Assembly (NCBI GenBank): GCA_040757555.1
Contig: JBFLWN010000007.1
Span: 9,404-73,403 of the forward strand
DNA: 64,000 bases
Source: Patescibacteria group bacterium
GTDB taxonomy: Bacteria > Patescibacteriota > Minisyncoccia > UBA6257 > GWB1-50-10
Direction: 5' to 3'
Made by a program: the position numbers and the translations under genes. Of the stretch, positions 18,454 through 43,454 are shown piece after piece. Under the pieces are notes generated by a model. It had not been told where the DNA came from and did no database searches. It saw nothing but the letters and a program-made list of their open reading frames with translations. How positions within the stretch are numbered: the first letter of the stretch is position 1; each line of letters starts with the position of its first letter.

Positions 18454-18508
18454 GTTGAAAAAAACAGAGAGAGGTATAAAGTATAACTAGTAAGAATAGT
18501 TGCTGATT

Positions 18509-20221: not shown

Positions 20222-20239
20222 AAATTTATAACTTTCAAA

Positions 20240-20782
20240 ATGAAGTGGAAAATAAGTTCAAAACAAAAACAACTTCTTGAAAATCTTTTTCGGGATATAC
20301 CCGCGAAGAAAGTGAGAAAAATTCTTGATGTTGGAAGTGGGCGGACAAGTATTCAGTTTTTGGCGGATAAATTTAAAAGTGTAATTGTGAAGGGACTTGT
20401 ATATCCTGGCGACAAACGTAAATTACAGCCGATTCGAGACTGTGTTTCGCGGAAGAACTATGAAATTATCGAACGTGACTTTAGAGATGTACGTTTTACC
20501 GAAGGGTTTGATATTACACTTGCTCATCTTTTTCTTGGTGAGGCAACAAAATTTGGATCGAATACATTTGGGGGTATGCTCCGAAAGCTTTTTTCACTTA
20601 AAACAAAATATCTTGTGATTGTTGATCTTCTTTTTGATCCTGGGGTTGATTATAATCTGGTATTTCAGATGATTGCGAAAAAAGGAAAACTTCTCAAGGT
20701 AATCTATCAATGGAGAGAAGGTGAGTCGAGGAAAGAATATAAAGGAATAGTTGGGTTTCTTATTAAGTTAAATCATGAATAA
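20240..20782 (+). CDS. Small class I SAM-dependent methyltransferase-like protein
   Basis: Motif I ILDVGSGRTS; 180 aa; embedded between paralogs 1 and 2. Confidence 0.45.
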   Translation: MKWKISSKQKQLLENLFRDIPAKKVRKILDVGSGRTSIQFLADKFKSVIVKGLVYPGDKRKLQPIRDCVSRKNYEIIERDFRDVRFTEGFDITLAHLFLGEATKFGSNTFGGMLRKLFSLKTKYLVIVDLLFDPGVDYNLVFQMIAKKGKLLKVIYQWREGESRKEYKGIVGFLIKLNHE

Positions 20783-22541: not shown

Positions 22542-22544
22542 ATT

Positions 22545-24191: not shown

Positions 24192-24228
24192 AGTCCATAA
24201 GGTTATAAGTTTATAAAGTCTTTAAAGT

Positions 24229-26022
24229 ATGAATAAAGAAAATAAGATCTGCCAAAACTGCAAAATTGAGTTCATCATTGAACCCGAAGATTTTCAGTTT
24301 TATAAGAAAATTAATGTACCTCCACCGACATTTTGTCCGGATTGTCGGAGACAGAGGAGGATGTTTTTTAGAAATGAGCGCGTGCTTTATAAAAGACCAT
24401 GTAATGCACCAGGCCACACTGAGGAAATCGTCTCGACATTTTCTCCCGATAAAAAAATAACCGTATACGATGAAAAATATTGGTGGAGTGATGCGTGGGA
24501 TCCGATTGATTATGGAACTCCATATGATTTTTTGGTGCCGTTTTTCGAACAATATAAACAACTTTTGAGGCGCATCCCACTTATTGCGCTTTCGGTCACG
24601 AATATGGTGAATTGCAGTTATTGCAATGTTTCCGAAGGAGACAAAAATTGTCTTTTTATTTCGGCCTCAGAAAAAAATGAAAATGTATTTTACTCAAATC
24701 GTGTGGTGCAATCAAAAGATTCAATGGATCTCTACATCGGAAATTACTCCGAATTGTGTTACGAGCTTGTTGCAGCAACAAATTGTTATAAGGTTCTATT
24801 CAGTCAGAATTGCAGTCAGTGTTCCGATTCGGCATTTCTTTACAACTGTACAAATTGCAATAATTGTTTTGGCTGCGTGAATTTGAAAAATAAATCATAT
24901 TATTTTTTTAACGAACCATATACAAAGGAAGAATATGAGAAAAAAATATCTGATTTTGATTTTAGGAAATTGTCGGACGTGAAAAGAGTGGAGGAAAAAT
25001 ATCATGAGCTTTTGCACCGATCGATTCGAAAATATGCAAATATTCTCAAATCAACGGAAGTAACAGGGGATAACATCGCATATGCGAAGAACTGCAGAGA
25101 TTCTTTTGATATTGTAGGAAATCCGTCTGTCGAAGATGGAAGGTTTTTAAATTGGGGAGGAGCGGGAATAAAAGATGTGTGGGACAGTGGTCCGGGGGTG
25201 GGAATTAGTTTGGAGCGGGCGTACGAGGTAACTGACACGGGCATCCAGGTTGCTGATGGATATTTCACGAGTGTTGTTTATGGTTCATACGATATCCATT
25301 ACTCTATCAATTGCCACGGATCAAAACATTTATTTGGATGTTATGGGTTACGAGGAAAGGAATATTGTATTTTGAACAAACAATATACAAAAGAAGAATA
25401 TGAAATATTAACTTCCAAGATCATTCAACACATGAAAGATTCGCCGTATGTCGATACAAAAGGGAGGGTGTATGCATACGGGGAATTTTTTCCTTCGGAG
25501 TTGTCGCCTTATGCGTACAACGAAGTTATTGCGCAGGAATATTTTCCACTTTCAAAAGATGGGGCAATTGCACAAGGATATATATGGAAGGATGCCGATG
25601 AGAAAAAACATATTCCTACAATGACATTTGAGAATATACCGGATGATATTAGTGGAGTAAAAGATTCAATTGTAAATGAAATCATATCGTGTGGTCATGG
25701 GGGAAAATGTGTTGGCCAATGCGTGACCGCATTTAAAATTCTTCCGCAGGAGCTTGAATTCTATCGGAGGATGAAATTACCCCTCCCACGGTTATGTCCA
25801 AATTGTCGACACGAAGAGCGTCTGAAAAAGAGAAATCCAATGAAGTTGTGGAAACAAAAATGCCAATGTGCCGGGAAGACGTCAGAAAATGGAATATATA
25901 AAAATACCACCACCCATCAACACGGGGACGGCCCATGTTTGGATCAATTTGAAACATCCTATGCTCCGGAGAGACAGGAAATCATCTACTGTGAAAACTG
26001 CTACCAATCAGAGGTGGTGTAG
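24229..26022 (+). CDS. Cys-rich multi-zinc-ribbon protein, paralog 4
   Basis: MNKENKICQNCKIEF, YCILNKQYTKEEYE, LCPNCRHEERLKKRNP, tail YCENCYQSEVV. Confidence 0.8.
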   Translation: MNKENKICQNCKIEFIIEPEDFQFYKKINVPPPTFCPDCRRQRRMFFRNERVLYKRPCNAPGHTEEIVSTFSPDKKITVYDEKYWWSDAWDPIDYGTPYDFLVPFFEQYKQLLRRIPLIALSVTNMVNCSYCNVSEGDKNCLFISASEKNENVFYSNRVVQSKDSMDLYIGNYSELCYELVAATNCYKVLFSQNCSQCSDSAFLYNCTNCNNCFGCVNLKNKSYYFFNEPYTKEEYEKKISDFDFRKLSDVKRVEEKYHELLHRSIRKYANILKSTEVTGDNIAYAKNCRDSFDIVGNPSVEDGRFLNWGGAGIKDVWDSGPGVGISLERAYEVTDTGIQVADGYFTSVVYGSYDIHYSINCHGSKHLFGCYGLRGKEYCILNKQYTKEEYEILTSKIIQHMKDSPYVDTKGRVYAYGEFFPSELSPYAYNEVIAQEYFPLSKDGAIAQGYIWKDADEKKHIPTMTFENIPDDISGVKDSIVNEIISCGHGGKCVGQCVTAFKILPQELEFYRRMKLPLPRLCPNCRHEERLKKRNPMKLWKQKCQCAGKTSENGIYKNTTTHQHGDGPCLDQFETSYAPERQEIIYCENCYQSEVV

Positions 26023-26123
26023 TTTATAAGGTTTGTAAAGTTGAAAGTTCGTAAAGTATGGTAGGATAAGCACAATTTTTGCCACTGGGCATTTTGTTTC
26101 TAACGGGGTAAAATCAGAGATAT

Positions 26124-28040
26124 ATGGACATAGAGTTAGACAAGGAAGTTGTCTATTTTGCAAAAACCGACTTTAGGAATTCAAAGCGCCTTTTTGGTAT
26201 AAAAAGAAGTGATCGAAGGCAGCACGTATATGTGGTAGGAAAAACGGGTACCGGAAAGACCACGTTGCTTCACAATATGATGGTGCAGGATATTACCAAT
26301 GGGGAGGGAGTGTGTGTTATTGATCCTCACGGAGAATTTGTTGAAACACTTTTACAGAAAGTTCCAAAACATCGCGCAGATGATGTTATCTATTTCAATC
26401 CCTCTGATCCCGATTCGTTTATTGGGTTCAATGTACTTGAGTTGCCCGATCCACAATATAAACATCTTGTGGCGTCCGGACTCATGGGAATTTTCACAAA
26501 AATTTGGTCAAACGTCTGGTCGGCGAGAATGGAATATATTTTGAATAATGCAATTTTAGCACTTCTCGATACTCCGGGTACGTCGCTTCTCGGAGTGACG
26601 CGTTTGCTTGTCGATAAAGAATATCGTCAGAAAATTATTGCGAATGTAAAAGATCCTGTGGTGAAAGCATTTTGGATTCATGAATTCGAAGAGTGGCGAG
26701 ATCAATTCCGAAATGAAGCAATCGCCCCCATTCAAAACAAAGTAGGACAATTTCTTTCGACTTCGCTTGTGCGCAATATTGTTGGGCAATCGAAAAGTAC
26801 GATTGATATTTTTGATTTGATGAATACCGGAAAAATATTTCTTGTAAACCTTTCAAAAGGAAGAATTGGAGAAGATAATTCCGCACTTCTCGGAGGGATG
26901 CTCATCACAAAAATGCAGTTGGCGGCAATGGAACGCGTGCGTATTCCCGAGGATGAGCGTGTTGACTTTTTCCTCTATGTCGACGAGTTCCAAAATTTTG
27001 CGACTGATTCATTTGCCAATATTCTCTCTGAAGCGCGTAAATATCGTTTGAACCTTACCCTCGCGCACCAATATATTGGGCAACTTACTACCGATACTTC
27101 TACAATTGTACGCGATGCGGTATTTGGAAACGTTGGAACAATGATTGCGTTTCGTGTGGGTGCGGGAGATGCGGAATTTTTAGAAAAAGAATTTACTCCC
27201 GAGTTTGAGATTCAGGATATGGTAAATCTTCCGAACCGCCGTATTTATTTGAAACTTATGGTTGATGGAGTGACAAGTAGACCGTTTTCTGCGGGTACAC
27301 TTCCTCCGCTTGGAGTGCTAGTGGATTCCGCATCGGCTGCGGATATTATTGAAGCATCTCGAAAAAAATATGCCCGCCCCCGTGCAATTGTCGAACGGGA
27401 AATCAATGAATGGAGCGGTGTTTCTGATCAGGCTACGGAATCCCGCGCGGTATTTTGTTCGTTGTGCGGAAAAGAAACAAAGGTGCCATTTGAACCGGAA
27501 GAGGGGAGGCCAGTGTATTGTCAGGATTGTTTGAAAAAAATTAAATCAGGCGAAGCGCGTCCCGTCTCTCTTCCTCAATCAAATCCACAAAGGAGTTTAC
27601 AACAAAAAAGTAGAAAGGCGCTTGCGGCACTCGGAATCGAATTTGATGATAGTGGGGGAGAAGAAATATTCGGAGGAGATGAAAAAAACGGAAAGGAGCA
27701 AAAGGGTTCTTTCACTGATCAGGAGCGAAAGCTTTTTAGGCCAGCGGCAAATACATATGGGCAACAGCGCGCTGATGTGCCGACACAACGACCCTCATCT
27801 CGTTTACAAACTTCCCCACAATCGAAGCCATTTCAATCGCCTCAGCCATCCAGGCCTGCTCGTGTAGAAAAAGAGCCTGAACCCAAAAAAGAAGAACCGA
27901 CAATACGATTAAGCGATGTAATTGCGCGAGGAAGTATAAAACCGAAGGAAACAGTTCAACCAAAAGAGGGTGGAGACGTTTCAGGGCTTCGCGATGCACT
28001 TCAGGAAGCTCTCAAAAATTTAAATAAAGATGAAAAATAA
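26124..28040 (+). CDS. VirD4/TraG-type coupling-protein-like P-loop ATPase, paralog 2, with C-terminal zinc ribbon and P/Q/S-rich tail
   Basis: GKTGTGKTT, VIDPHGE, FFLYVDEFQN, AHQYIGQL; C-terminal CSLCGKETK...YCQDC; clearly paralogous to 16283..17752. Confidence 0.55.
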   Translation: MDIELDKEVVYFAKTDFRNSKRLFGIKRSDRRQHVYVVGKTGTGKTTLLHNMMVQDITNGEGVCVIDPHGEFVETLLQKVPKHRADDVIYFNPSDPDSFIGFNVLELPDPQYKHLVASGLMGIFTKIWSNVWSARMEYILNNAILALLDTPGTSLLGVTRLLVDKEYRQKIIANVKDPVVKAFWIHEFEEWRDQFRNEAIAPIQNKVGQFLSTSLVRNIVGQSKSTIDIFDLMNTGKIFLVNLSKGRIGEDNSALLGGMLITKMQLAAMERVRIPEDERVDFFLYVDEFQNFATDSFANILSEARKYRLNLTLAHQYIGQLTTDTSTIVRDAVFGNVGTMIAFRVGAGDAEFLEKEFTPEFEIQDMVNLPNRRIYLKLMVDGVTSRPFSAGTLPPLGVLVDSASAADIIEASRKKYARPRAIVEREINEWSGVSDQATESRAVFCSLCGKETKVPFEPEEGRPVYCQDCLKKIKSGEARPVSLPQSNPQRSLQQKSRKALAALGIEFDDSGGEEIFGGDEKNGKEQKGSFTDQERKLFRPAANTYGQQRADVPTQRPSSRLQTSPQSKPFQSPQPSRPARVEKEPEPKKEEPTIRLSDVIARGSIKPKETVQPKEGGDVSGLRDALQEALKNLNKDEK

Positions 28041-28041
28041 T

Positions 28042-28076
28042 AAAATCTCCCCGCTTTAAGCGGGGAGATTTTATTG
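28042..28076. terminator. Bidirectional terminator between convergent genes
   Basis: Perfect 13-bp stem aaaatctccccgc/gcggggagatttt with a 5-nt loop, flanked by A/T runs on both sides. Confidence 0.7.
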
Positions 28077-28079
28077 TGA

Positions 28080-28664
28080 TTATTTTGATTTATCGACGCG
28101 TTCAACGTAGTCTCCTGTTTGTGTATTGATGCGAATCACATCTCCTTCGTTTACGAAAAGAGGAACATTTACTTTTGCGCCTGTTTCAATTGTCGCAAGT
28201 TTTGTACCACCTTGTGCGGTATTTCCTTTTATGGCTGGTGGGGCTTCAGTTATCTTAAATTCCATTTTTACCGGAAGCTCGATGTCAATTACCTTTTCGC
28301 CGAATTTAAATGCCTTAATTTCGGTATTTTGTTTTAAATACTGTCCACCACTTCCCAACACATCATCGGGGAGGGTAAATCGATTTTTTGGATTTCCAAC
28401 CTCATGGAACCAATATCCGTCTTTATTATGATAGATGAAGTTTGCTAAAAGTGTTTCGATTTCGATTTCATAAAAATCTTCATTTTGGTGTGCGGTATAG
28501 TCCTGACTTTTCCCTGTAATCAGATTTTTTATCTTTAATTGCACCACAGGCTTCCTCTGTTGCATGCGAATAAACGCATATTCCATCACTTTATATGGAT
28601 TTGGGTCGTCGTTTTTGGTGAATACCGTGCCGACTTTAAGCTCAATATATTCAAGTTTTGACAT
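28080..28664 (-). CDS. efp: Elongation factor P
   Basis: 194 aa; N-terminal KOW-like MSKLEYIELKVGTVF...KPVVQLKIKNLITGKS and two OB domains. Confidence 0.9.
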   Translation of the reverse strand: MSKLEYIELKVGTVFTKNDDPNPYKVMEYAFIRMQQRKPVVQLKIKNLITGKSQDYTAHQNEDFYEIEIETLLANFIYHNKDGYWFHEVGNPKNRFTLPDDVLGSGGQYLKQNTEIKAFKFGEKVIDIELPVKMEFKITEAPPAIKGNTAQGGTKLATIETGAKVNVPLFVNEGDVIRINTQTGDYVERVDKSK

Positions 28665-28742
28665 AGATAATAACTACTAGTTTATAAAAGCGACTGTGGT
28701 ATTGTATTGTAAAAGCTAAGAAATTTCAACATAATTGGCTCG

Positions 28743-29858
28743 ATGAGTGAAAATACAAAAAAGCGGGTATTTGTAGGAATGAGTGGGGGAGTTGATAGCT
28801 CCGTTGCGGCATTTTTATTGAAAAAAGAGGGGTATGATGTGACTGGAGTATATATCAATGGGTTTAATGTAGACGGATGTTCAGAGCGCGATGCAGAGGA
28901 TGCGCGCCGTGTTGCCGATCATCTTGGAATTCCATTTTATGTGATTGATGCTCGCGAAGACTATTTTGAATATGTAGTGCAATACATGATCAAAGGATAT
29001 AAAAAGGGACTCACGCCAAATCCTGATGTGATGTGCAATAAGGAAATAAAATTTGGGATTTTTTTAGATAAGGCATTAAAACTTGGAGCGGATTACATCG
29101 CGACTGGTCACTATGTTTGTTTTGAAAAAAAATCAAAACTTTTTGAGGCAAAAGATAAAAATAAAGATCAATCATATTTTTTGTGGACACTCACACAAAA
29201 ACAATTAAAGCATTGTTTATTTCCGGTAGGGGAATACACAAAACCGGAAATTCGGGAGATCGCAAAAAAAGCAAAATTACCGACCGCAGAAAAAAAAGAC
29301 TCACAAGGAATTTGTTTTTTGGGAAAAGTAAAACTCCCCGAATTTTTGAAAGCATATATAAAACCAAAAAGAGGGGATGTGTTGGATACCGAAGGAAATA
29401 AAATTGGAGAACACGAAGGAGTGCAATTTTATACTATTGGACAGAGGCATCTCAATATAATTCAAAAATCAAATCTTAAATCTCAAAAAGGAATAATAGA
29501 TAGGAAGCCATATTATGTTGCGGAAAAAGATGTTAAGAGAAATATACTTATTGCCGCACAAGGAGATACTCATCCCGCATTATTTAAAAAAGAAATTGAG
29601 TTAACCGATGTTCATTTTATTAATACGGAAATCAAATCTCTAATTCGTGCGAATAAGCGAATGGATGTGCTTGTGCGAGTGAGGTATAGGCAACCACTTT
29701 TTAAGGCGACACTTGTATATGATGAAAAGAAATGGAAAGTTTTGTTCAACGACCCGCAAAAATTTGTTGCACCTGGGCAATCCGCGGTGTTTTATGGTAT
29801 AGGTCTCGATGAGAGTGGAAACCATGAGATGCTAGGCGGTGGGGTGATTTTGGAATAA
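28743..29858 (+). CDS. mnmA: tRNA-specific 2-thiouridylase MnmA
   Basis: PP-loop VFVGMSGGVDSSVAA and the conserved Cys of MnmA. Confidence 0.9.
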   Translation: MSENTKKRVFVGMSGGVDSSVAAFLLKKEGYDVTGVYINGFNVDGCSERDAEDARRVADHLGIPFYVIDAREDYFEYVVQYMIKGYKKGLTPNPDVMCNKEIKFGIFLDKALKLGADYIATGHYVCFEKKSKLFEAKDKNKDQSYFLWTLTQKQLKHCLFPVGEYTKPEIREIAKKAKLPTAEKKDSQGICFLGKVKLPEFLKAYIKPKRGDVLDTEGNKIGEHEGVQFYTIGQRHLNIIQKSNLKSQKGIIDRKPYYVAEKDVKRNILIAAQGDTHPALFKKEIELTDVHFINTEIKSLIRANKRMDVLVRVRYRQPLFKATLVYDEKKWKVLFNDPQKFVAPGQSAVFYGIGLDESGNHEMLGGGVILE

Positions 29859-29887
29859 TATTAAACACATAGTGTTGGGTATCTAGT

Positions 29888-31597
29888 ATGGCTGAACCAG
29901 AAATAAAAATTTGCCAAAACTGTAAGCAAGACTTCACCATAGAGAGTGAAGATTTGAGTTTTTATACAAAAATAGGTGTGCCCTCGCCAAAATTATGTCC
30001 ACTATGCCGCGCTCAACGGAGACTTGCATTCCGTAATGAGCGCGTTTTTTATAAGCGGAAATGCGATCGATGCGATAAGAATGTGGTTTCGATGTATAGT
30101 CCCAATAAACCATACCGAGTATGGTGTTACGATTGTTGGTTTTCCGAAGATTGGGATCCTCTTATATACGGGAGAAATTATGATCCAACCAGATCTTTTC
30201 TTGAACAATTTGAGGAGCTTTGGAAAGAGGTTCCAAAAGTCGCGCTTATTCATATGCGAAGCGTGAACTCAGAATATTTAAATATTTCGGCCGATAATAA
30301 GAATTGTTATATGATTGTTGAGTCGTCAAACAATGAGGGATGCGCGCATTGTTATTGGATACAGGAATGCAAAGATTGTGTTGATGTTTCCTTTGCATCA
30401 AAAACTGAACTTTCATATGAAAGCGATGATTGTTATGACTCGTATAAACTGTTTTACAGCAAAGGATGTCATGATTGTAGAGAAAGTTATTTTCTTTTTG
30501 ATTGTAAAGATTGTTCTGATTGTATTGGATGTATGAATTTAAGAAGTAAAAAGTACCATGTGTTTAACCAGCCGCTCACCAAGGAACAATATGAGGAGTT
30601 TTTAAAGACCGCAAGACTTAATACACACGAAGGGGTTGAAGGTGTGAGAAACAAATTTGAGTCGTTTATGAAGACTCAGCCGAAAAAATATGCAGAGATA
30701 TATAACGCGCCGGGATCAAGTGGGGGATATATGAAAAATAGTAAAAACTGCAAACTCTGCTTCCACTGTTATGATTCAGAGGATTCAAAATATGGGGTGC
30801 ACGTGTGGCGAAATGCAAAGGATTGTATGGATGTGGATACCGCGGGAAGAAATGCTGAACGTTTATATAATTCAATGAATGCGGGAATTGATGTTTCAAA
30901 CTACGTTTGTTCAAATCTTTGTTGGACGTGTAGTTTTATGCAGTATTGTTATTATTGTTTTAATTCAAATTTTTGTTTTGGTTCAGTGGGACTTAGAAAA
31001 AAAGAATATTGTATTTTGAACAAAAAATATACAAAAGAAAAGTTCGAGGAATTGCAAAAACAGATTATTGAAGATATGAAAAAAAGAGGGGAATATGGAG
31101 AGTTTTTTCCCGCTCATATGAGTACATTTGGATACAACGAAACGGCAGCACAAGAACAGTTTTCCCTTACAAAAGAAGCAGCAGAAAAACTAGGATTTAA
31201 ATGGGAAGAATATCCACGGGGGACCTATGGGAAAGAGAATATAAAATGGGAGAGTATTTCGGGTACTATAGATCCCTTGACTGCTATATTTGCATGTGTC
31301 TTGTGTTCTAAAAATTATCGCATTATTCCCGCTGAGTTATCGTTTTATGAAAGACTAAACATACCATTTCCACGGCTATGCCCCGATTGTCGACATATGC
31401 GTCGAATTAAGAACCGTGGGCCAAATAGGTTATGGAAACGTACATGTTCGTGTGGAAATAAAAACACGATATATAAAAATAACGCAGTCCATTTTCATGG
31501 AGAGAGTCAATGTCAGAATGAATTTGAAACAAATTTTCTCCCGGAAAACAATGAAGTATTATATTGTGAACAGTGTTATAACCAAGAAGTGGTTTAG
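29888..31597 (+). CDS. Cys-rich multi-zinc-ribbon protein, paralog 5 (divergent subtype)
   Basis: MAEPEIKICQNCKQDF, YCILNKKYTKEKFE, tail YCEQCYNQEVV. Confidence 0.8.
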   Translation: MAEPEIKICQNCKQDFTIESEDLSFYTKIGVPSPKLCPLCRAQRRLAFRNERVFYKRKCDRCDKNVVSMYSPNKPYRVWCYDCWFSEDWDPLIYGRNYDPTRSFLEQFEELWKEVPKVALIHMRSVNSEYLNISADNKNCYMIVESSNNEGCAHCYWIQECKDCVDVSFASKTELSYESDDCYDSYKLFYSKGCHDCRESYFLFDCKDCSDCIGCMNLRSKKYHVFNQPLTKEQYEEFLKTARLNTHEGVEGVRNKFESFMKTQPKKYAEIYNAPGSSGGYMKNSKNCKLCFHCYDSEDSKYGVHVWRNAKDCMDVDTAGRNAERLYNSMNAGIDVSNYVCSNLCWTCSFMQYCYYCFNSNFCFGSVGLRKKEYCILNKKYTKEKFEELQKQIIEDMKKRGEYGEFFPAHMSTFGYNETAAQEQFSLTKEAAEKLGFKWEEYPRGTYGKENIKWESISGTIDPLTAIFACVLCSKNYRIIPAELSFYERLNIPFPRLCPDCRHMRRIKNRGPNRLWKRTCSCGNKNTIYKNNAVHFHGESQCQNEFETNFLPENNEVLYCEQCYNQEVV

Positions 31598-31608
31598 TAA
31601 TTAAAAAG

Positions 31609-33336
31609 ATGAATCAAGAAAATAAAATTTGCCAAAACTGTAAGCAAAACTTCATTATTGAACTTGAGGATTTCGATTTCTACAAAAAAATGGAGGTGCC
31701 GCCTCCGACGTGGTGTCCGGAGTGTAGAAATATGCGCCGCGCACTTTGGAGAAATGAGCTTACACTCTATAAACGACGTTGTAATGTTCCGGGGCATTCG
31801 GAGGAGATAATTTCGATGTATGTGCCGACATCCCCATTAACTGTATATGACAATGAATACTGGTGGAGTGATGCATGGGATCCACTTTCATATGGACGAG
31901 ATTTTGATTTCTCTCGCCCGTTTTTTGAACAACTAAAGGAGCTTATTTATCGCGTACCTGTTGCGGCACGAGCAGATGCAATGGGGGTACAATCTCAGTT
32001 TTGTAATTTTTCTCTCGGGTTTAAAAATTGTTATTTTTCTTCGGCGGGGTGGGCAAATGAGGAGTGTATTTACAGCAATCGTATCGATGATTGTAAAGAT
32101 TCTGGTGATCTTTTTGTTTGTCATACAAATAGTGCGAGCTATGAGAATGTAGATTGTACGGAGTCGTTTAAATTATTTTATAGTACACAATGTAAAAGTT
32201 GCACCGAATCATATTTTCTTTTCGATTGCAGAAATTGCTCCAACTGTATTGGTTGCACGAATTTGCGGAACAAATCATATTTTATTTTTAATAAACCGTA
32301 TTCGAAAGAAGAATATATGCAGAAACTAAAAGATTTTTCATTTGATTCGTATTCGTTTATTCAAAATTTTAAAAAAGAATTTGATGAAAAAAAGAAAAAT
32401 GCAATTCGTCGTTACGCACAAGTCTATAATTGCACCAATGTTATTGGGGATAATGTAGCAGATTCCAGGAATTGTTATCAATGTTTTGATTTGACGGGTG
32501 GTGCAGAAAACGTGAAATACACCCACTGGGGCATTAATGGGTTGAAGGATACATATGATACTGGTCCAGGAACGGGCGGCCATTCCGAACTTATGTATGA
32601 GGGGATAAGTACTGCAAAAAATAATTCACGGTATCGATTTAACGCACTTGTGTGGGAATCTATCGATGTTGAATATAACTGGAATTGCTACAACTGCAGA
32701 AATATTTTTGGATGTTCGGGGTTGCGGAATAAACAATATTGTATTTTAAATCGGCAATATACAAAAGAGGAGTACGAAGCATTTGTGTTAAAAATAAAAG
32801 AACAAATGAATGCAGTTCCGTATATAGATACAAAAGGGAGAATTTATTTATATGGTGAGTTTATGCCCTCTGATTTTGCACCGTTTGCCTTTAATGAAAG
32901 TGTTGCATTTGATTATTGGCCACTAGATGAAGAAAGGGCTATAAATTATGGGTTTAGGTGGGTATCAGTGGATAAGAAACAATATGTGCCAACCATGGAC
33001 GTAGAAAAGATTCCCGACGCAATACATGATGTGTCTGGATCAATTTGTAACGAGATTATTACATGTGAACACAGGGGTGCGTGCTCACATAAATGTCCTG
33101 GCGCATTTCGTGTTGTTCCACAAGAATTAGAATTTTATAAAAAATATGGAATTCCGGTACCGCATCTTTGTTTTAATTGTCGTCATAGCCAAAGACTCAA
33201 AGAGCGGAATCCAATGAAATTATGGCATCGTTTATGTATGAAATCTGGGTGCACCAATGAATTTGAAACCTCCTATACTCCCGAACGACCGGAGATTGTG
33301 TATTGTGAGAGTTGTTACCAAAAAGAAGTCTTTTAA
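31609..33336 (+). CDS. Cys-rich multi-zinc-ribbon protein, paralog 6
   Basis: MNQENKICQNCKQNF, YCILNRQYTKEEYE, tail YCESCYQKEVF. Confidence 0.8.
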   Translation: MNQENKICQNCKQNFIIELEDFDFYKKMEVPPPTWCPECRNMRRALWRNELTLYKRRCNVPGHSEEIISMYVPTSPLTVYDNEYWWSDAWDPLSYGRDFDFSRPFFEQLKELIYRVPVAARADAMGVQSQFCNFSLGFKNCYFSSAGWANEECIYSNRIDDCKDSGDLFVCHTNSASYENVDCTESFKLFYSTQCKSCTESYFLFDCRNCSNCIGCTNLRNKSYFIFNKPYSKEEYMQKLKDFSFDSYSFIQNFKKEFDEKKKNAIRRYAQVYNCTNVIGDNVADSRNCYQCFDLTGGAENVKYTHWGINGLKDTYDTGPGTGGHSELMYEGISTAKNNSRYRFNALVWESIDVEYNWNCYNCRNIFGCSGLRNKQYCILNRQYTKEEYEAFVLKIKEQMNAVPYIDTKGRIYLYGEFMPSDFAPFAFNESVAFDYWPLDEERAINYGFRWVSVDKKQYVPTMDVEKIPDAIHDVSGSICNEIITCEHRGACSHKCPGAFRVVPQELEFYKKYGIPVPHLCFNCRHSQRLKERNPMKLWHRLCMKSGCTNEFETSYTPERPEIVYCESCYQKEVF

Positions 33337-33338
33337 TT

Positions 33339-35081
33339 ATGGACCAAGAAAAAAGAAATTGTCAGAATTGTAAAAATCAATTCGTCATCGAGTCCGAAGA
33401 TTTCGATTTTTACAAAAAAATTGATGTACCGCCTCCGACGTGGTGTCCGGAGTGTAGGGTAGTGCGCAGATTTATATTGAGAAACGAAAGGACAATGTAT
33501 AGAAAAGAATGTGGATTATGTGGAAAAAACACCCTCTCGGTTTACTCTGGTGATTTTGAAAACACAATGTATTGTCATGAATGTTGGATTTCCGATAAAT
33601 GGGATCCACTTGAATATGGTGTCGAGTATGATTTTTCAAAGTCTTTTTTTGAACAATATAAAAAATTATTAAAAAAAGTTCCACTGAGAATGGTGTTTAA
33701 TATCAATATAGAAAATTCTCCATATACCAATTACACAGCACATTCAAAAAATGTCTTTATGTCTTTTTCTGCGTTGCACTCGGAAAATATCTTTTTCTCA
33801 AAGAATCTACAAAGATGCTTTTGGAACGTTGATTGTTTTGATGTAAATGATTCAGAAAATTGTTACGAAGTTATTGAAAGTGAAAAAAATTACAACTCAA
33901 TGTTTTTATATCGTTCCAGAAATTCTATGGATTCTATGTTTTTATTTGACTGTGTAAATTGTAAGGATTGTATTCTATCTTCAAATCTCAGAAATAAACA
34001 ATATATTATAAGAAATAAGCAATGTAAAAAAGAGGAATACGAAAAAGAGAAGCAAAAGATTCTTTCAGGAAGTTATTCTTCCCTTCAGGTATTAATTCAT
34101 GAATATAGAGAGTTAATAAAAAACTCAATACATAAATTTTCGCAGTTCACTAATACACAAAATTGTGTAGGAGATAACCTGATTAACTCGAAAAATGCGC
34201 AGTATTGCTTTAATAGTGATGGAGTTGAAGATGTGAGATATGGATTTAGAATACCAAAAACGAGGGACTCATATGATTTGGCATATTCTGGTCCGAATAT
34301 TGAACTTATGTATGAATTTATCGGGGGTGGGAACGAAGGTGGAAGAAAAACATTTTTTGTAGCATATGGATCAGCTGCTAATGAAGATTGTGTATACGGA
34401 CAATTTTTAAATAATTCTTCTCATCTTTTCGGTTGCGTCGGTCTTACCAACAAACAGTATTGCATCCTGAACAAGCAATACACCAAAGAGGAGTACGAAG
34501 TACTCCTCAAGAAGATCAAACAACACATGTTTGATATGCCCTATATCGACCAGAAAGGCAGGGTCTACACCTATGGTGAATTCTTCCCTCCCGAACTCTC
34601 TCCCTTAGGATACAATGAGACTATTGCCCAGGAATACTTCCCCCTCACCAAGGAACAAGCACTTGCTCAAGGATTCTCCTGGAAAGATCCTGACACCAAG
34701 AACTACACCATCACCAAAAAACCCGACGATCTCCCTGACTCCATCACCGAGGTTTCCGACTCCATCACCGATGAAGTGATTGGGTGTGTACATGCAGGCA
34801 CTTGCACTCACCAGTGCACCACTGCCTTCAAAATCATCCCTCAAGAGCTTGAGTTCTATCGCAGAATGCACCTCCCGCTTCCACGACTCTGCCCCAACTG
34901 CAGACATTATGAACGTCTTGCCCAACGAAATCCCCTGAAGCTCTGGAAGAGGCTGTGCATGTGCGACAAATCAACACACCAACACGAAGGAGTCTGTCCC
35001 AATGAATTCGAAACCTCCTATGCTCCCGAGAGAAAAGAGATAGTCTATTGTGAGCAATGTTATCAGGCGGAGGTGGTGTAG
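33339..35081 (+). CDS. Cys-rich multi-zinc-ribbon protein, paralog 7 (mosaic; 3' third in different codon usage)
   Basis: MDQEKRNCQNCKNQF (start trimmed to the ATG after the paralog 6 stop), YCILNKQYTKEEYE, tail YCEQCYQAEVV. Confidence 0.8.
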   Translation: MDQEKRNCQNCKNQFVIESEDFDFYKKIDVPPPTWCPECRVVRRFILRNERTMYRKECGLCGKNTLSVYSGDFENTMYCHECWISDKWDPLEYGVEYDFSKSFFEQYKKLLKKVPLRMVFNINIENSPYTNYTAHSKNVFMSFSALHSENIFFSKNLQRCFWNVDCFDVNDSENCYEVIESEKNYNSMFLYRSRNSMDSMFLFDCVNCKDCILSSNLRNKQYIIRNKQCKKEEYEKEKQKILSGSYSSLQVLIHEYRELIKNSIHKFSQFTNTQNCVGDNLINSKNAQYCFNSDGVEDVRYGFRIPKTRDSYDLAYSGPNIELMYEFIGGGNEGGRKTFFVAYGSAANEDCVYGQFLNNSSHLFGCVGLTNKQYCILNKQYTKEEYEVLLKKIKQHMFDMPYIDQKGRVYTYGEFFPPELSPLGYNETIAQEYFPLTKEQALAQGFSWKDPDTKNYTITKKPDDLPDSITEVSDSITDEVIGCVHAGTCTHQCTTAFKIIPQELEFYRRMHLPLPRLCPNCRHYERLAQRNPLKLWKRLCMCDKSTHQHEGVCPNEFETSYAPERKEIVYCEQCYQAEVV

Positions 35082-35121
35082 GGGAATGTTTAACGCGTAA
35101 TACAGGGTATAATTATCCAAT

Positions 35122-35439
35122 ATGGAAAAAATAGAATCGGAAAATTTAGGAATAGAAAAGTTTTCTTCTTTTGTAGAGGAATATGAAAATTTAAAGAAGA
35201 GACTCTATGAAATAGATGCAGAAGTTGTGGAAAGGGGCGATGAGGAAGAGATGCTTGATTGGGGTCGTTGGGGAGGTGGTAGAATTGTTAAGGCTGAGTA
35301 TCTGAAAGAGATAGAAGGAGCTATAGAAAATTATAAAAAAGGAATTGATAAAGACTATAACCTCGGGGTTTTAGAGACGTATATTAAATTGGTAAAAGAA
35401 ATGATGCCAAAATGTGAAGAATATAGTAAAAAAAATTAA
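35122..35439 (+). CDS. Hypothetical acidic coiled-coil protein
   Basis: 105-aa ORF between paralogs 7 and 8; no recognisable motif. Confidence 0.35.
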   Translation: MEKIESENLGIEKFSSFVEEYENLKKRLYEIDAEVVERGDEEEMLDWGRWGGGRIVKAEYLKEIEGAIENYKKGIDKDYNLGVLETYIKLVKEMMPKCEEYSKKN

Positions 35440-35443
35440 GATT

Positions 35444-37105
35444 GTGAATCAAGAAACAAAAACATGTCAGAATTGTAAAATCGAGTTCGTCATTGAACCT
35501 GAGGATTTTGATTTTTACAAAAAAATGGGAGTACCGACGCCGAAATTATGTCCCGACTGTAGATTTATCAGAAGAATGTTGTGGAGAAACGAGAGGTCTC
35601 TGTATACACGAAAATGTGATTTGTGTGGGAATTCTATGATAAGCACATATCCGGAATTAACTCCTTACACCGTTTATTGCTGGGATTGCTATCACTTGGA
35701 CAAATGGGATCCAAAAATATATGCAATGGAATATGATTTTTCCCGGTCTTTTTTTGATCAATTTGGTGAATTAATGAAGAAAGTTCCGAAGTCAAATATT
35801 TACTCCGATAATCTTGGAATAAATAGTGAATATATAAATTTTGCGGGATTTAACAAAGACTGTTATCTCATTTTTAACAGCGGACACAATGAAAACTCGA
35901 TGTATTCGCGCGGAATTGCAGAATCGAGAGAAACTGTAGATGGATATTTTTGTAACAATGTTGAAAAAACATATGAAGGAGTGAATGTAAATAAATCAAA
36001 TGGAGTAGTATATGGCCAAAATTCTACGAATGATATTGATTCGTGGTTTATGCTCAATACATCCGGATGTCAAAATTGTTTTGGATGTGTAAATGTGCGT
36101 AATGGTTCCTGTCAGTTTTTTAATCAACAACTTTCCAAAGAGGAATATCAGAAAAGAGTAGGAGAGGTGAGGGGAAGTTATAAGGAAACACAGAAAATGA
36201 TAGAAGATTTCAAGCGTCACGCATCTTTATTTCCCATGCGGGAGAACACAAACATAAAGACGGTTGATTCAACCGGGAATTATCTTTTTGAGTGTAAGAA
36301 TGTAAGGGGTTGTTTTGAGTCGTTTGACTGTGAGGATTGCAAATACTGTCATTTCTTGAAGCATACAAAAGATACCTATGACGCACTTGGATTTGGATAC
36401 GGGTCGGAGCTTTTACTCAATACGGTTGGTGTGGGAAGGGAATCGCAAAGGGTTATTGGCTCAATTCAGGTTTCAAGCTCTCAAAATATTTTTTATTGCG
36501 CTTCTGTGAGGACATCAAACGAGTGTTTCGGATGTGAGGGTTTGAAAAACGGAGAATATTCAATTTTAAATAAACAGTATTCCCCAGAAGAATACAAAAA
36601 AATAAAAAAGCACATTATTGACGAACTTATGAAAAACGGGGAGTATGGACTTTTCTTCCCCCCAGAACTTTCTCCTTTCGCCTATAATGAAACGATTGCG
36701 CAAGAAAATTTTCCACTTACAAAAGAAGATGCGACAAACAGGGGATATGGGTGGAGAGATGAAATTCAAAAAACCACAGGAAAAGAAACATTATTGCCGG
36801 AAAATCTTCCCGATCAGATTAATGACGTTTCCGATTCTGTTACGAATGAAATATTAAAATGCGTGGAATGTTCAAGAAATTATAAAATCATTCCTCCCGA
36901 ACTGTCTTTTTACAGAAAGATGCAAATTTCGGTGCCACGTAAATGTTTTAATTGCAGACACGCTGATCGCGTGTGGCGCCGGGGTCCAATGAAATTATTT
37001 GATCGCGCCTGTACGCACTGTGGGAAGAATATAAAAACTCCTCTTTCGGATGATAGGGCAAAAATTGTTTATTGTGTTGAATGTTATCAGGCGGAGGTGG
37101 TATAA
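35444..37105 (+). CDS. Cys-rich multi-zinc-ribbon protein, paralog 8 (divergent subtype; probable GTG start)
   Basis: VNQETKTCQNCKIEF, EYSILNKQYSPEEYKK, tail YCVECYQAEVV. The ORF-track start 35414 overlaps the upstream ORF, so the GTG at 35444 is preferred. Confidence 0.7.
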   Translation: MNQETKTCQNCKIEFVIEPEDFDFYKKMGVPTPKLCPDCRFIRRMLWRNERSLYTRKCDLCGNSMISTYPELTPYTVYCWDCYHLDKWDPKIYAMEYDFSRSFFDQFGELMKKVPKSNIYSDNLGINSEYINFAGFNKDCYLIFNSGHNENSMYSRGIAESRETVDGYFCNNVEKTYEGVNVNKSNGVVYGQNSTNDIDSWFMLNTSGCQNCFGCVNVRNGSCQFFNQQLSKEEYQKRVGEVRGSYKETQKMIEDFKRHASLFPMRENTNIKTVDSTGNYLFECKNVRGCFESFDCEDCKYCHFLKHTKDTYDALGFGYGSELLLNTVGVGRESQRVIGSIQVSSSQNIFYCASVRTSNECFGCEGLKNGEYSILNKQYSPEEYKKIKKHIIDELMKNGEYGLFFPPELSPFAYNETIAQENFPLTKEDATNRGYGWRDEIQKTTGKETLLPENLPDQINDVSDSVTNEILKCVECSRNYKIIPPELSFYRKMQISVPRKCFNCRHADRVWRRGPMKLFDRACTHCGKNIKTPLSDDRAKIVYCVECYQAEVV

Positions 37106-37132
37106 AAAGGTATATAGTAGTAAGTATTACGT

Positions 37133-38866
37133 ATGGTGAATTCAAAAACCCCACAATTTGATAAGGCACTTGATGAAATTTTGAATTCGCTTGTTCCCCA
37201 TGAGCGGACGTGTCGAAAATGCAATGTAGTATTCAATATAATCGAAGAAGATATAAACTTCTTCCGTATATTTCGAGTACCTCCTCCAATGTTGTGCTCG
37301 CTTTGTAGGAGAAAACGCCGGTTTGGGCATTTGATGCGCGTTCCGAAATTTTTTAAGAAAAAATGTAGTGCGCCAGGGCACGAAGAAGAGGTTATAACTG
37401 TTTTTCCACCATCTTCCCCACACAGAATATACGACTTTTCCTTTTATCAATCGGATGAATGGGATGGTGCTTCTTATGGAAAGGAGTATGATGTTTCGCA
37501 ACCATTTTTTTCTCAGTTTCAGAAATTGTTCTTTGATGTTCCACACGTTTCGTTGGAACGGGATCCGATGGGAGTGGGAGTTGAGTATACACTTGGGGGG
37601 CGTGGAGGAAAGAATAATTACTATGCATCTGCACCGTTTGGGAGTGAAGAGTGTTCTTATGTGAATGATGCACGTTTTTCAAAAAATATTATTGATTCAA
37701 ATGCCATGTTCAATTCAGAATTTTGCTATGAATCAGTGAATACTTCATATAGTAATAAGGGGATATATCTTATGAATTGTTCGCATTGCATTGATTCGGC
37801 ATTCTTATATGATTGCAAAAATTGTTCCGATTGTTTTCTTTCTTCAAATCTTCGGAATAAATCATATGTATTTCAGAATGAACAACTTACAAAAGAAGAT
37901 TATCGTCGTAAAATAACCGAGATTGATCTGGGGGACAGGGACGTATTTAGAAAGATGAAAGGGGAGTTTATATTTGTCGCGGAGAAGGCATTACGGAGAG
38001 CTACACAAACAGTTAATTGTGTTGATACTCTGGGAGATAGCGATATTGAATGTAAGGATTGTTATTTTGTGTTTCGTGCTCAGAATTCCGAACATTGTAG
38101 ATATTCAGAAAATCTTTTGAAAGCAAAAGATCTTTATGGTGTTACCAATAGTATTGGAGAACATATTTATGAAGGAGTGACATGTATTCCTAGTAACATT
38201 TGGTTTTCCCTTTTTGCTCGTGATTCCACATTCGTAGAATATTGTGTGGAAGTTCGCAACTGTAATTATTGTTTTGGATGTGTGAGCCTCAAAAATAAGC
38301 GATTTCATATTTTTAATAAACCATATACAGAAGAAGAATATTGGAAAAAAGTAGATGATATAAAAACTGCAATGCTCTCGAGAGAAGAATATGGTGAGTT
38401 TTTCGATCTTTCTCTCGGACTTATGCCGTATCAATCATCGAATGGAGAATATTATTTTCCAGTTTCAGAAGAAGAGGCCAAAGCACAAAATATCCCCATT
38501 TATCCAGAGCCAGAGAGTCATCTTCCTAATAGTATTCGTATTCTTGATCCACAAACAGAAGTTCCTAAAAATATTAAAGATGTGACGGATGATATTTTAA
38601 AACATGCAGTTTGTTGTGAGGTGTCTGGGAAAGCGTTTCGTATTACACCATCCGAACTTCAATTTTATCGACGTCTTAATATTCCTATTCCATTAAAACA
38701 TCCGTGGCAAAGAATGATTGAGCGGAGGGATTGGGAATTTCCTTTTATGCTATATGACTTTGTGTGTCCACAATGTGGTGAAAAATCTTTTTCGGTATAT
38801 TCGCCCGAAGAGCAGAAAAAGTTGAAAATTTTCTGCGAAAAATGTTATTTGAGGGAAGTGGTATAA
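37133..38866 (+). CDS. Cys-rich multi-zinc-ribbon protein, paralog 9 (most divergent, N-terminal extension)
   Basis: CRKCNVVFNIIEEDINFFRIFRVPPPMLCSLCRRKRR, RFHIFNKPYTEEEY, tail FCEKCYLREVV. Confidence 0.75.
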   Translation: MVNSKTPQFDKALDEILNSLVPHERTCRKCNVVFNIIEEDINFFRIFRVPPPMLCSLCRRKRRFGHLMRVPKFFKKKCSAPGHEEEVITVFPPSSPHRIYDFSFYQSDEWDGASYGKEYDVSQPFFSQFQKLFFDVPHVSLERDPMGVGVEYTLGGRGGKNNYYASAPFGSEECSYVNDARFSKNIIDSNAMFNSEFCYESVNTSYSNKGIYLMNCSHCIDSAFLYDCKNCSDCFLSSNLRNKSYVFQNEQLTKEDYRRKITEIDLGDRDVFRKMKGEFIFVAEKALRRATQTVNCVDTLGDSDIECKDCYFVFRAQNSEHCRYSENLLKAKDLYGVTNSIGEHIYEGVTCIPSNIWFSLFARDSTFVEYCVEVRNCNYCFGCVSLKNKRFHIFNKPYTEEEYWKKVDDIKTAMLSREEYGEFFDLSLGLMPYQSSNGEYYFPVSEEEAKAQNIPIYPEPESHLPNSIRILDPQTEVPKNIKDVTDDILKHAVCCEVSGKAFRITPSELQFYRRLNIPIPLKHPWQRMIERRDWEFPFMLYDFVCPQCGEKSFSVYSPEEQKKLKIFCEKCYLREVV

Positions 38867-38883
38867 AGAATTTTAAATTTTAA

Positions 38884-40605
38884 ATGAAACAAGAAAAAAG
38901 AAATTGCCAAAATTGCAAAGGGGAATTCATCGTTGAAGATGAAGATTTTCAATTCTATAAAAAAATAGAAGTACCACCCCCAACATTCTGTCCTGACTGT
39001 AGAATACAAAGACGGCTTTCCTATAAAAATGAGCGAACACTTTATCGACGAACTTGTGATAAATGTAAAAAGAATATCATTTCCATTTTTCCTACAGACG
39101 TAAAATTTCCTGTATATTGCCCACAGTGCTGGTATGCGGATGATTGGGGGGCAGAAGAATATGGGATGGAATATGATTCTTCAAAGACTTTTTTTGTCCA
39201 ATTTAAGGAACTTATGGATCGCGTGCCCCGTATGAGTGTGTATATCGATCTTGGGCGTACGATAAATAGCGAGTATTTGCACCTTACGGGACCCGCGAAG
39301 GATTGTTATCTTGTTTTTCTTGCAGACCAGAATGAGAATTGTATGTATTCATATTCAATTTTTTACAATAAAGATCTTGTGGATGCGACTAAGGTTTCAA
39401 GTACTACGCGCGGGTATGAGCTCATTAATTGTGAAAATTGTTATCAAACAACATATTCAAGTGATTGCAAAAATTGTGTCGATACGGCGTTTTCAAAAAA
39501 CTGTAATAATTGTACAAACTGTTTTGGGTGTGTGAATCTTTCAAATAAAAAATTCTGTTTTTTTAATGAACAACTCAGTGAAGCAGAATATAAGGTGCGT
39601 ACAAGTGAATTTTTTTCAGGGTCGTTTGTAAAAACAATAGAAGCGGAAAAAAGAAGCGCTGAATTTTTTAAAGATTTTCCGGTGAAATATATGCACGGAA
39701 ACATGAATACAAATGTTTCGGGGGATTATATTTTTCAGAGTAAAAATGTGAAAAATTCATTTCAGGTAGTGGGAGGAACAGATAATAAATATTGTCAGAC
39801 GCTCAATATGGAACCAACCTCGGATTCATATGATTATTCCGATTGGGGAAATAATGCAACTTTAATGTACGATTCAGTAAATTGTGGAGAATATATTACA
39901 AGAACAAAGTTTACTTATGGTGCGTGGCTTGGGGGAGATTATGAATATTGCGATGTCTGTATTGATAGTCACAACCTTTTTGGATGTATCATGTTGAAGA
40001 AAAAGAAATATTGCATATTGAACAGACAATATACAAAAGAAGAATATGAAAAACTGCGCGCAGAGATTATAAAAGAGATGAATGAACGCCCATATAAAGA
40101 TGTAAAAGGGAGAATATATTCTTATGGTGAATTTTTCCCATCAGAATTATCACCCTACCCGTATAAAGATACTGCCGCATTTGAATATTTCCCGCTTACT
40201 GATAATGAAATAAAAAATAATGGATATGTATGGCGAGAGGAGGATGTGCGTGAATATATGCCGACCATGAAATGGTCGGACCTTCCCGATAATATCAATG
40301 ATGTATCGGATGATATTCTTAAGGAGATTATTGAGTGCGCTCATACAAAAGATGGGTGCAATGATCGATGTGCAACGGCATTTCGTATTACCCCGCAAGA
40401 GCTCCAGTTTTATAAAATAATGAAACTTCCGCTTCCGCGATTTTGTTATAATTGTCGGCACTATCGAAGATTTCGTGCGATGAATCCGTGGAAACTATGG
40501 AAAAGAAATTGTGCAAAATGTGGAGCTCAAATTGAGACCTCATATTCACCAGAGAGGGGAGAGACGATATACTGCGAACCTTGCTATCAGAAGGAAGTGA
40601 TATAA
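38884..40605 (+). CDS. Cys-rich multi-zinc-ribbon protein, paralog 10
   Basis: MKQEKRNCQNCKGEF, YCILNRQYTKEEYE, tail YCEPCYQKEVI. Confidence 0.8.
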   Translation: MKQEKRNCQNCKGEFIVEDEDFQFYKKIEVPPPTFCPDCRIQRRLSYKNERTLYRRTCDKCKKNIISIFPTDVKFPVYCPQCWYADDWGAEEYGMEYDSSKTFFVQFKELMDRVPRMSVYIDLGRTINSEYLHLTGPAKDCYLVFLADQNENCMYSYSIFYNKDLVDATKVSSTTRGYELINCENCYQTTYSSDCKNCVDTAFSKNCNNCTNCFGCVNLSNKKFCFFNEQLSEAEYKVRTSEFFSGSFVKTIEAEKRSAEFFKDFPVKYMHGNMNTNVSGDYIFQSKNVKNSFQVVGGTDNKYCQTLNMEPTSDSYDYSDWGNNATLMYDSVNCGEYITRTKFTYGAWLGGDYEYCDVCIDSHNLFGCIMLKKKKYCILNRQYTKEEYEKLRAEIIKEMNERPYKDVKGRIYSYGEFFPSELSPYPYKDTAAFEYFPLTDNEIKNNGYVWREEDVREYMPTMKWSDLPDNINDVSDDILKEIIECAHTKDGCNDRCATAFRITPQELQFYKIMKLPLPRFCYNCRHYRRFRAMNPWKLWKRNCAKCGAQIETSYSPERGETIYCEPCYQKEVI

Positions 40606-42124: not shown

Positions 42125-42133
42125 AATGTATAT

Positions 42134-43062: not shown

Positions 43063-43449
43063 TTGGTTTGGCGATACAATAGATATATGGAGAAATTAGC
43101 AAAGTTATCTTCTACTCATTTTTTGAGAGACAAAACACTTCGCCTGCTTTTTATTATTGGCTTATTTCTTTTTGTGGTGGGTTTTGTGTTGGTGCTTCTT
43201 AGTGTGAATATCTTGAGTCTTCCGGTTATCCTTCATTTTGATACGATGAGTGGGGTGGATAAATTCGGAGACCAGTCGTCGGTATGGGGGGTGTGGGGAC
43301 TTGGATTTGTACTTTTTCTTATTAATTCTGTTTTGGGAGAGGTATTTTTCTTGCGTGAGCGGGCTCTCTCATTTGTATGTTTCGGGGCAAATTTGTTTTT
43401 GGGAATTTTATTTCTCATTATTCTTTCGGTTATTATTACAGTGAATTAA
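43063..43449 (+). CDS. Hypothetical small membrane protein
   Basis: Three predicted TM helices, no motif. Confidence 0.3.
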   Translation: MVWRYNRYMEKLAKLSSTHFLRDKTLRLLFIIGLFLFVVGFVLVLLSVNILSLPVILHFDTMSGVDKFGDQSSVWGVWGLGFVLFLINSVLGEVFFLRERALSFVCFGANLFLGILFLIILSVIITVN

Positions 43450-43454
43450 TCACC

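Follow-up and report, generated by a model that had tools for sequence, protein, structure and literature searches.

Paralog 7 (p7), one of ten tandem paralogs in the DNA analyzed here (a stretch of 64,000 nucleotides, henceforth the window), is probably a recombinant gene made up of two modules with different histories, in which a C-terminal module of foreign origin was imported and the DNA upstream of it was exchanged later. Four observations bear on this reading: an abrupt break of base composition inside the gene, a discordance between the relatives of its N- and C-terminal parts, breakpoints in the comparison with another strain, and the recurrence of the same junction across the protein family. 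The array, its genes and the two modules of p7 are located as follows.

18500..40605 (+): array of ten tandem paralogs of an uncharacterised Patescibacteria family (about 550–600 amino acids)
18509–20221 (+): p1
20775–22541 (+): p2
22545–24191 (+): p3
24229–26022 (+): p4
29888–31597 (+): p5
31609–33336 (+): p6
33339–35081 (+): p7, the mosaic gene
33339..34427 (+): N module of p7, host-like in codon usage (GC3 0.264) and made up of Zn-ribbons and a variable beta-solenoid
34428..35081 (+): GC-rich C module of p7, containing the final rungs of the solenoid, a helix and, at the C terminus, a Zn-binding domain; GC3 0.585, C3 0.41
35444–37105 (+): p8
37133–38866 (+): p9
38884–40605 (+): p10

Compositional break within p7

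The product of p7 is a protein of 580 amino acids, identical to the NCBI MAG protein AB1333_03835. The GC content at third codon positions (GC3) is 0.264 over codons 1–363 and 0.585 over codons 364–580, and the C content at those positions (C3) passes from 0.116 before the junction to 0.406 after it. The maximum-likelihood change point was located, for GC3 and C3 alike, at codon 364 (window position 34428), the TTC (F) codon of the LFGCVGL motif, with log-likelihood ratios (LLR) of 29.5 for GC3 and 32.0 for C3, reached by none of 2000 permutations, and with a support interval of about 34419–34461. The high GC3 extends to the stop codon, and at most 30 nt beyond it the GC content is down to 0.23. 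The GC content at second positions (GC2) is flat across the junction (0.32 versus 0.36, with values of 0.36–0.38 in the C parts of the other paralogs), so the shift of composition is essentially synonymous. The GC skew goes negative at the junction.

The C module has no near equal in composition among the 48 genes of the window. In the 1390 windows of 100 codons taken from these genes, the background GC3 was 0.326 ± 0.055, with a maximum of 0.49 outside p7, and the background C3, also in 100-codon windows of the 48 genes, was 0.124 ± 0.037, with a maximum of 0.22 outside p7; the corresponding values for the C module of p7 were 0.54–0.62 for GC3 and 0.33–0.49 for C3. The C modules of the other nine paralogs of the same genome have GC3 values of 0.25–0.37. 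The original prediction, which had described a switch from A/T-ending to G/C-ending codons in p7 and its continuation to the stop, was confirmed on the first point and borne out on the second. The GC3 profile, whose uniformity would have spoken against it, is not uniform: p7 shifts from 0.26 to 0.59, and the C-minus-N difference of the other nine paralogs is only −0.08 to +0.05.

A similar picture was obtained from codon-usage likelihoods computed with models of 55 Patescibacteria loci. For the N part of p7, the window's own genes ranked 3rd of 55; for the C part, the host model ranked 48th of 55 and the best fits were given by loci with a background GC3 of 0.5–0.65. A composition and codon usage that depart from those of the host, within sharp boundaries, are one mark of a xenologous segment, and the C module has it.

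The AlphaFold model of p7 (pLDDT 86.4, pTM 0.87) displays N-terminal Zn-ribbons, a central domain that superposes on known beta-solenoids and can thus be assigned, as a prediction, to that fold, and, past residue ~376, a long helix and, at the C terminus, a domain rich in Cys. Residue 364 lies in the last solenoid rungs of the model, ahead of the helix (383–399) and the C-terminal domain. The junction is therefore predicted to coincide with a structural domain boundary.

Discordant relatives of the two modules

When the 217-amino-acid C module was compared with 5.8 billion proteins, it was found 88–90% identical to only two of them, P0002, which comes from two Logan assemblies, and P0005, which comes from another contig of the same MAG and is known here as a protein. 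The N parts of p7, P0002 and P0005 are only 40–47% identical to each other. The gap between C and N identities, typically 13 points among the paralogs of the window, amounts to 41–50 points for p7 versus P0002 and P0005. No relative of the p7 N module exceeded 51–56% identity, and the best match was 51% when the N part alone was searched against 5.8e9 proteins. With P0005 as a protein query, the best match was 61% identical.

The search for a donor of the C module, which had been suggested as a check of the BLAST type, did not return a donor lineage: the best outside matches to the module were 75–78% identical in amino acids in GTDB genomes and JGI metagenomes, and neither an identified donor nor a nesting of the module in a donor clade was found. 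The hosts of these closest outside modules have background GC3 values of 0.26–0.75, so that the relatives point to no single lineage.

Comparison with a sister strain

P0002 is carried by two contigs, L001 and L002, of the single-run Logan assemblies SRR21677120 and SRR21427519. Coming from different sequencing runs, the two contigs share 98.4% identity, and each of them is syntenic with the window; the comparison with L001 covers 7.4 kb of the sister strain. The features on which this comparison turns are listed next.

31699..31727 (+): 5′ conserved block in p6, CCGCCTCCGACGTGGTGTCCGGAGTGTAG, encoding PPPTWCPEC; left breakpoint
31729..34414 (+): strain-specific segment of 2686 nt, comprising the rest of p6, a 2-nt spacer and the N-terminal two-thirds of p7
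34452..34499 (+): block of highest nucleotide conservation in the family, KQYCILNKQYTKEEY, lying just 3′ of the change point; putative right-hand recombination anchor
35122..35439 (+): AT-rich ORF of 105 amino acids downstream of the C module

From 28079 to 31728 the window is 99–100% identical to L001 in 100-nt windows, with the exception of two indel-rich intergenic stretches, and the p5 ortholog of L001 displays a dS of 0.037. This near-identity stops within the PPPTWCPEC block common to p6, p7 and P0002, which constitutes the left breakpoint; a 29-mer of the p6 block is found exactly in p7 (33429–33457) and with two mismatches in P0002. The 2686 nt that follow (31729–34414) are not alignable with the 956 unrelated nt that occupy the same place in L001 and L002, so that the locus contains two genes (p6 and p7) in the window versus one in L001/L002. 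That the L001 gene arose simply by deletion or unequal crossing-over involving p6 and p7 was considered and rejected because the middle part of P0002 is only 42–47% identical in amino acids to either of them.

Identity to L001 resumes at 34415, and the module is about 85–88% identical in nucleotides (dS 0.66, dN/dS 0.10). The ORF at 35122..35439 (95–96% nucleotide identity to L001) marks the return to host composition and to a higher identity between strains. Farther downstream, p8 is about 92% identical to its L001 ortholog and belongs to a diverged right-hand haplotype, because the dS between both orthologs is 0.48 (dN/dS 0.04). The breaks between the window and L001/L002, at 31727/8 and 34415, are rearrangement breakpoints located in conserved blocks, and the right one, adjoining the most conserved block, is also where the composition changes. 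The latest event at the junction would thus have altered its upstream side and not the C module.

P0002 itself displays a GC3 jump from 0.30 to 0.53 in the same codon region, with its change point inside the support interval of p7. Both modules have G or C at 83 of 192 comparable third positions, with 58 expected by chance, which suggests that the module was already GC-rich in the common ancestor of the p7 and P0002 copies; judged from the sequences, the GC3 of that ancestor may have been roughly 0.55–0.67. As L001 and L002 already carry the GC-rich module at the same locus, the module would predate the split of the haplotypes of the window strain and L001/L002 and would not be the latest arrival.

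Conserved blocks and recurrence of the junction in the family

Among the other nine paralogs, the best 45-nt window has a mean pairwise identity of 78%, versus 50% for the whole gene. It corresponds to positions 34452–34499 and starts 24 nt 3′ of the p7 change point. The original prediction is therefore right in placing the junction at the block where the nucleotides of the family are best conserved.

A family sample of 332 full-length genes from 161 loci was analyzed in the same way. The related loci were picked by similarity to the C module of p7, and the family-wide frequencies given here are biased accordingly; the clustering of breakpoints at the junction is not accounted for by this choice of loci. 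The C-minus-N difference in GC3 over the 332 genes had a mean of 0.008 and a standard deviation (SD) of 0.077; the SD was 0.059 for control genes divided at 63% of the gene length. The difference for p7 was the second largest of the sample. Significant GC3 change points (LLR above 10, the 99.9th percentile of the null being 8.1) were found in 16 of 293 non-redundant genes, and in 10 of these 16 (8 besides p7 and P0002) the change point was at most 15 codons away from the p7 junction. The deviation takes both directions: AT-rich hosts with GC-rich C modules occur (L081 and L042) as well as GC-rich hosts with AT-rich N modules (L009, L102 and L017). Incongruence between 5′ and 3′ parts was judged by discordance of identities and not by tree tests; by this measure, in 7 of the 20 pairs with a C identity of at least 85% the N identity was 31–47%, and reverse cases also exist. 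Across the family as a whole, crossovers have repeatedly fallen at this junction. The proposal that the family is exchanged between genomes is supported by the N/C discordance, by the breakpoints between strains and by the 16 change points in 293 genes.

Alternative explanations

Two alternatives are best judged with the strain comparison at hand. The break could be an assembly chimera, in which the contig switched, at a k-mer of the conserved block, into the homolog of a GC-richer co-occurring organism and switched back at the end of the gene. A junction at the most conserved block of the family and a metagenome-assembled genome as the source speak for it. Against it, the assemblies of SRR21677120 and SRR21427519 share the layout of AT-rich N part, GC-rich C part and AT-rich downstream DNA, with the junction at the same codon and the same genes downstream, and the sister module is only about 86% identical to that of the window; an artifact would call for two exact joins at the module boundaries, repeated in each of three assemblies, and the module is under in-frame purifying selection (dN/dS 0.10). 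Three assemblies with the same layout and a 14% difference between modules make a chimera extremely improbable, and the chimeric join at about 34426 to which the original prediction had drawn attention is effectively excluded by two independent assemblies with the same architecture. The original prediction itself, taken literally, was that the C-terminal third of a resident p7 had recently been overwritten by a cassette of higher GC. The sharp compositional break and the foreign codon style agree with this, and its core is retained: p7 is a recombinant mosaic with a codon style of foreign, higher-GC type, and the site of the junction stands. It is the recent overwriting that is improbable, as the module occupies the same locus in L001/L002 with the same downstream genes, at a dS of 0.66 from that of p7, and would have been GC-rich already in the common ancestor; moreover, the strains differ in the N module and in the extra gene p6, that is, the latest change would be the upstream one at 31729–34414, and no close donor was found in GTDB genomes, JGI metagenomes or 5.8e9 proteins.

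Alternatively, the C module could have been enriched in situ, with no foreign origin, if GC-biased gene conversion between copies of the module that recombine often, or selection on its codons or mRNA, had raised GC3 locally. Several facts are compatible with it: where the C module of a gene reaches 70% identity or more to that of p7, the C GC3 tends to be above the N GC3 in many hosts (mean difference +0.11), the module has kept a high GC3 over a dS of 0.66, and its three copies are in closely related genomes. Nevertheless, the probability of this explanation seems small. The C modules of the other nine paralogs of the same genome show no such enrichment, and no other gene of the window, EF-P included, exceeds a C3 of 0.22; the C3-rich codon pattern is that of ordinary genes in GC-richer Patescibacteria. 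In the GC-rich hosts L009, L102 and L017 it is the N module that deviates, being AT-rich, and the C module matches the host, which fits a transfer of modules and not a property of the C module. An RNA or antisense gene embedded in the module was also considered as the cause of its GC-richness and rejected: there was no Rfam match, and the lone antisense ORF, of 106 amino acids (34605–34925), has no other support and was not convincing as a gene.

Proposed history of p7

Under the preferred reading, that of a recombinant gene with a foreign C module and a later upstream exchange, the N-terminal 363 codons of p7 would be in the codon style of the host itself, and the C-terminal 217 codons would go back to a copy whose evolution took place in another Patescibacteria lineage, much GC-richer at third positions (about 0.55–0.7). 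The foreign stretch would run from the conserved LFGCxGL/NKQYCILNKQYTKEEY block through the stop codon. It seems reasonable to interpret that this segment entered the lineage by homologous recombination anchored in conserved blocks, before the window strain and L001/L002 separated. Uptake by natural transformation would be a plausible route, considering that ComEC is present and that competence in Patescibacteria has been discussed (PMC12455944). Since its import, the module would have been under purifying selection and would have been partly ameliorated toward the AT-rich host. The GC3 of the p7 and P0002 modules has been held at 0.52–0.59 over a dS of 0.66 in an AT-rich genome, and this retention requires slow amelioration, repeated imports or some selection. 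In what would be a second, later use of the junction, the stretch from the 5′ Zn-ribbon block to the central block (2686 versus 956 nt) was exchanged, as the strain comparison shows; by this exchange the gene number passed from one to two, or from two to one, and the GC-rich module gained a new N-terminal partner.

The protein family and its genomic context

The family to which p7 belongs is large: at least 7977 relatives were counted, as 7977 of 8000 scored candidates had E < 1e-5, nearly all of them from Patescibacteria. No family was assigned to p7 in sequence searches of Pfam, NCBIfam, PADLOC and PDB, Pfam being searched at E ≤ 0.01. In the comparison with the treble-clef fingers zf_Tbcl (PF13451) and zf_Tbcl_2 (PF23477), p6 scored 18.1 bits, below the cut-off of 24; a few homologs do contain PF23477 (P0017 and P0073). 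Relatives of the family were not found in IMG/VR viral contigs or GenBank phages, which could have indicated viral or phage carriage, and literature searches returned nothing on this paralog family.

An ATPase gene, EF-P and MnmA break into the array. Of the two ATPases of the TrwB/VirD4/HerA-like kind that lie within it or at its flank, one has a zf_Tbcl_2 finger; a VirD4/HerA-like ATPase is encoded at 26124–28040. Homologs of these ATPases are beside family genes in 39 of 160 related loci. After the array, the window contains a split ComEC (40673–43048) and RmuC; their adjacency was considered as a conserved link and rejected, with ComEC in 4 and RmuC in 1 of the 160 loci. Elsewhere in the window, the 16S rRNA gene (62055–63916) has a length of 1862 nt against a model of 1533 positions.

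It is conceivable, if doubtful, that the whole family works as a combinatorial diversification system, where the conserved blocks at domain boundaries would act as built-in crossover sites for arrays of full-length genes, the variable solenoid and conserved Zn-finger modules would be reshuffled all the time within arrays, between strains and between lineages that differ in GC content, and the VirD4/HerA-like ATPase found in about a quarter of the loci would be linked to the function. If so, the GC-rich tail of p7 would be a trace, visible here, of a pool of exchange that spans the phylum. Apart from this, p7 is a clear-cut case, at the level of sequence, of homologous recombination inside a gene of Patescibacteria, between strains and, by composition, between lineages. 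These bacteria are uncultured, and their capacity for genetic exchange has mostly been deduced from gene content. A large uncharacterised family with up to ten tandem copies per genome, module swapping and a frequent link to an ATPase is thereby a candidate diversifying system, of interaction or of conflict.

Comparison with known systems

The mechanism considered here is well known from mosaic genes and from recombination at the conserved blocks of tandem paralogs, and what is uncharacterised is the protein family. Classical mosaic genes, like those of the penicillin-binding proteins of pneumococci and neisserias, arise by transformation and interspecies homologous recombination. They resemble p7 in that a gene that is otherwise resident contains diverged or foreign blocks whose ends lie in conserved stretches, and in that the host is probably naturally competent; ComEC is encoded in the window. 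They differ in that no donor was found for p7 and no selective agent is known for it, in that the block is old (dS 0.66 between the strain alleles) and in that recombination joins members of one large family of paralogs. A silent-cassette system of the pilE/pilS or vls type was rejected, because all ten copies of the array are complete ORFs with start and stop and no partial cassettes were seen.

Among systems of tandem paralogs, the T7SS immunity genes of firmicutes are non-identical copies that recombine homologously, with copy numbers that vary between strains (PMC9484751). Recombination among tandem copies and a change of copy number between strains are common to both cases. However, a toxin/immunity context is not evident around p7, its junction is an intragenic domain boundary, and a compositional signature of inter-lineage transfer is added.

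Of the systems described so far, the nearest to this one is the lpl cluster of tandem lipoprotein-like paralogs of Staphylococcus aureus, studied by Tsuru and Kobayashi (2008; PMC2568036). It has a central conserved region that is the site of recombination, and the unit that evolves and is exchanged there runs from the 3′ part of an ORF across the spacer into the 5′ part of the following ORF. The array described here is like lpl in having tandem paralogs in one cluster (ten on the + strand, 18509–40605), a highly conserved nucleotide block inside every ORF (78% versus a gene mean of 50%), incongruent histories of 5′ and 3′ parts (88–90% for the C and 40–47% for the N parts of p7, P0002 and P0005) and strain rearrangements with breakpoints in conserved blocks. 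The segment 31729–34414 has exactly the shape of the lpl unit, as a single occurrence among the strains compared, the best relative of its N part being 51% identical. Unlike lpl, there are two anchor blocks, the 5′ Zn-ribbon one and the central one, and the proteins are cytoplasmic-looking Zn-ribbon/beta-solenoid proteins of Patescibacteria. Also unlike lpl, the p7 module has a foreign base composition, which indicates that exchange would reach across lineages of different GC content and not only within a species.

Module swapping in other members of the family

The exchange of modules at the junction of the mosaic paralog p7 has counterparts in three family genes of reverse-mosaic composition found in related loci:

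L009, 4882-6690, reverse-mosaic family gene
L102, 4918-6690, reverse-mosaic family gene
L017, 4912-6711, reverse-mosaic family gene

The hosts of these genes are GC-rich (background GC3, the GC content at third codon positions, 0.56-0.76), and the genes carry AT-rich N modules (GC3 0.33-0.40) joined to C modules that match the composition of the host. In every case, the change point lies 1-10 codons from the p7-type junction. The N module of the L017 gene shares 77% identity with its counterpart in L081, an AT-rich host. Concerning the family gene pairs L133/L147 and L024/L086, their C modules are 98% identical and their N modules 31-39% identical; the two pairs are further, more recent cases of module swapping.

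Among the ten paralogs of the window, p3 (22545-24191) and p9 (37133-38866) are much more divergent than the remaining ones, with identities to other paralogs of 25-33% in the N module and 31-46% in the C module, the latter being devoid of the PYxDxKGR segment and of part of the Cys cluster.

Family genes were also found on two short contigs binned as 'Woesearchaeota archaeon' (L006) and 'Dokdonella sp.' (L027). In both cases, the contig is probably Patescibacteria sequence placed in the wrong bin and not a genuine example of the family beyond this phylum.

Genomic neighbourhood of the paralog array

The following genes of the window accompany the paralogs:

14331-15749 and 15756-16286, two ORFs directly 5′ of the first ATPase
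16283-17752, first TrwB/VirD4/HerA-like ATPase, before the array
26124-28040, second TrwB/VirD4/HerA-like ATPase, inside the array
35122-35439, 105-aa acidic ORF, between p7 and p8
40673-42124, first ComEC gene (Competence/DUF4131)
42134-43048, second ComEC gene (metallo-beta-lactamase domain)
43377-44504, RmuC

Both ATPases match PADLOC mad8, and the second one contains a zf_Tbcl_2 treble-clef finger at aa 442-473. In 39 of the 160 related loci, an ATPase homolog lies no more than 6 kb from a family gene, which suggests that the ATPases and the family are functionally linked. The two upstream ORFs gave no Pfam match; since their homologs occur in 15 and 11 related loci, respectively, this conserved neighbourhood may include them as well. 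ComEC, which is split into two genes, and RmuC lie directly 3′ of the last paralog, an adjacency to family genes that is not conserved (4 and 1 of the 160 related loci, respectively).

The 105-aa ORF, without family match, is 96% identical at the nucleotide level in the syntenic sister-strain contigs L001 and L002, and no other related locus was found to carry it. When the window was compared to L001, column identity fell to about 62-76% at intergenic positions 28779-28849 and 29749-29918, within a left flank otherwise 99-100% identical. Both stretches are spacers rich in indels, located around EF-P/MnmA and 5′ of p5.

16S rRNA gene

The 16S rRNA gene (62055-63916) spans 1862 nt versus the 1533 positions of the model, which implies a putative insertion of about 330 nt. 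16S rRNA insertions of this kind have often been reported in CPR bacteria.
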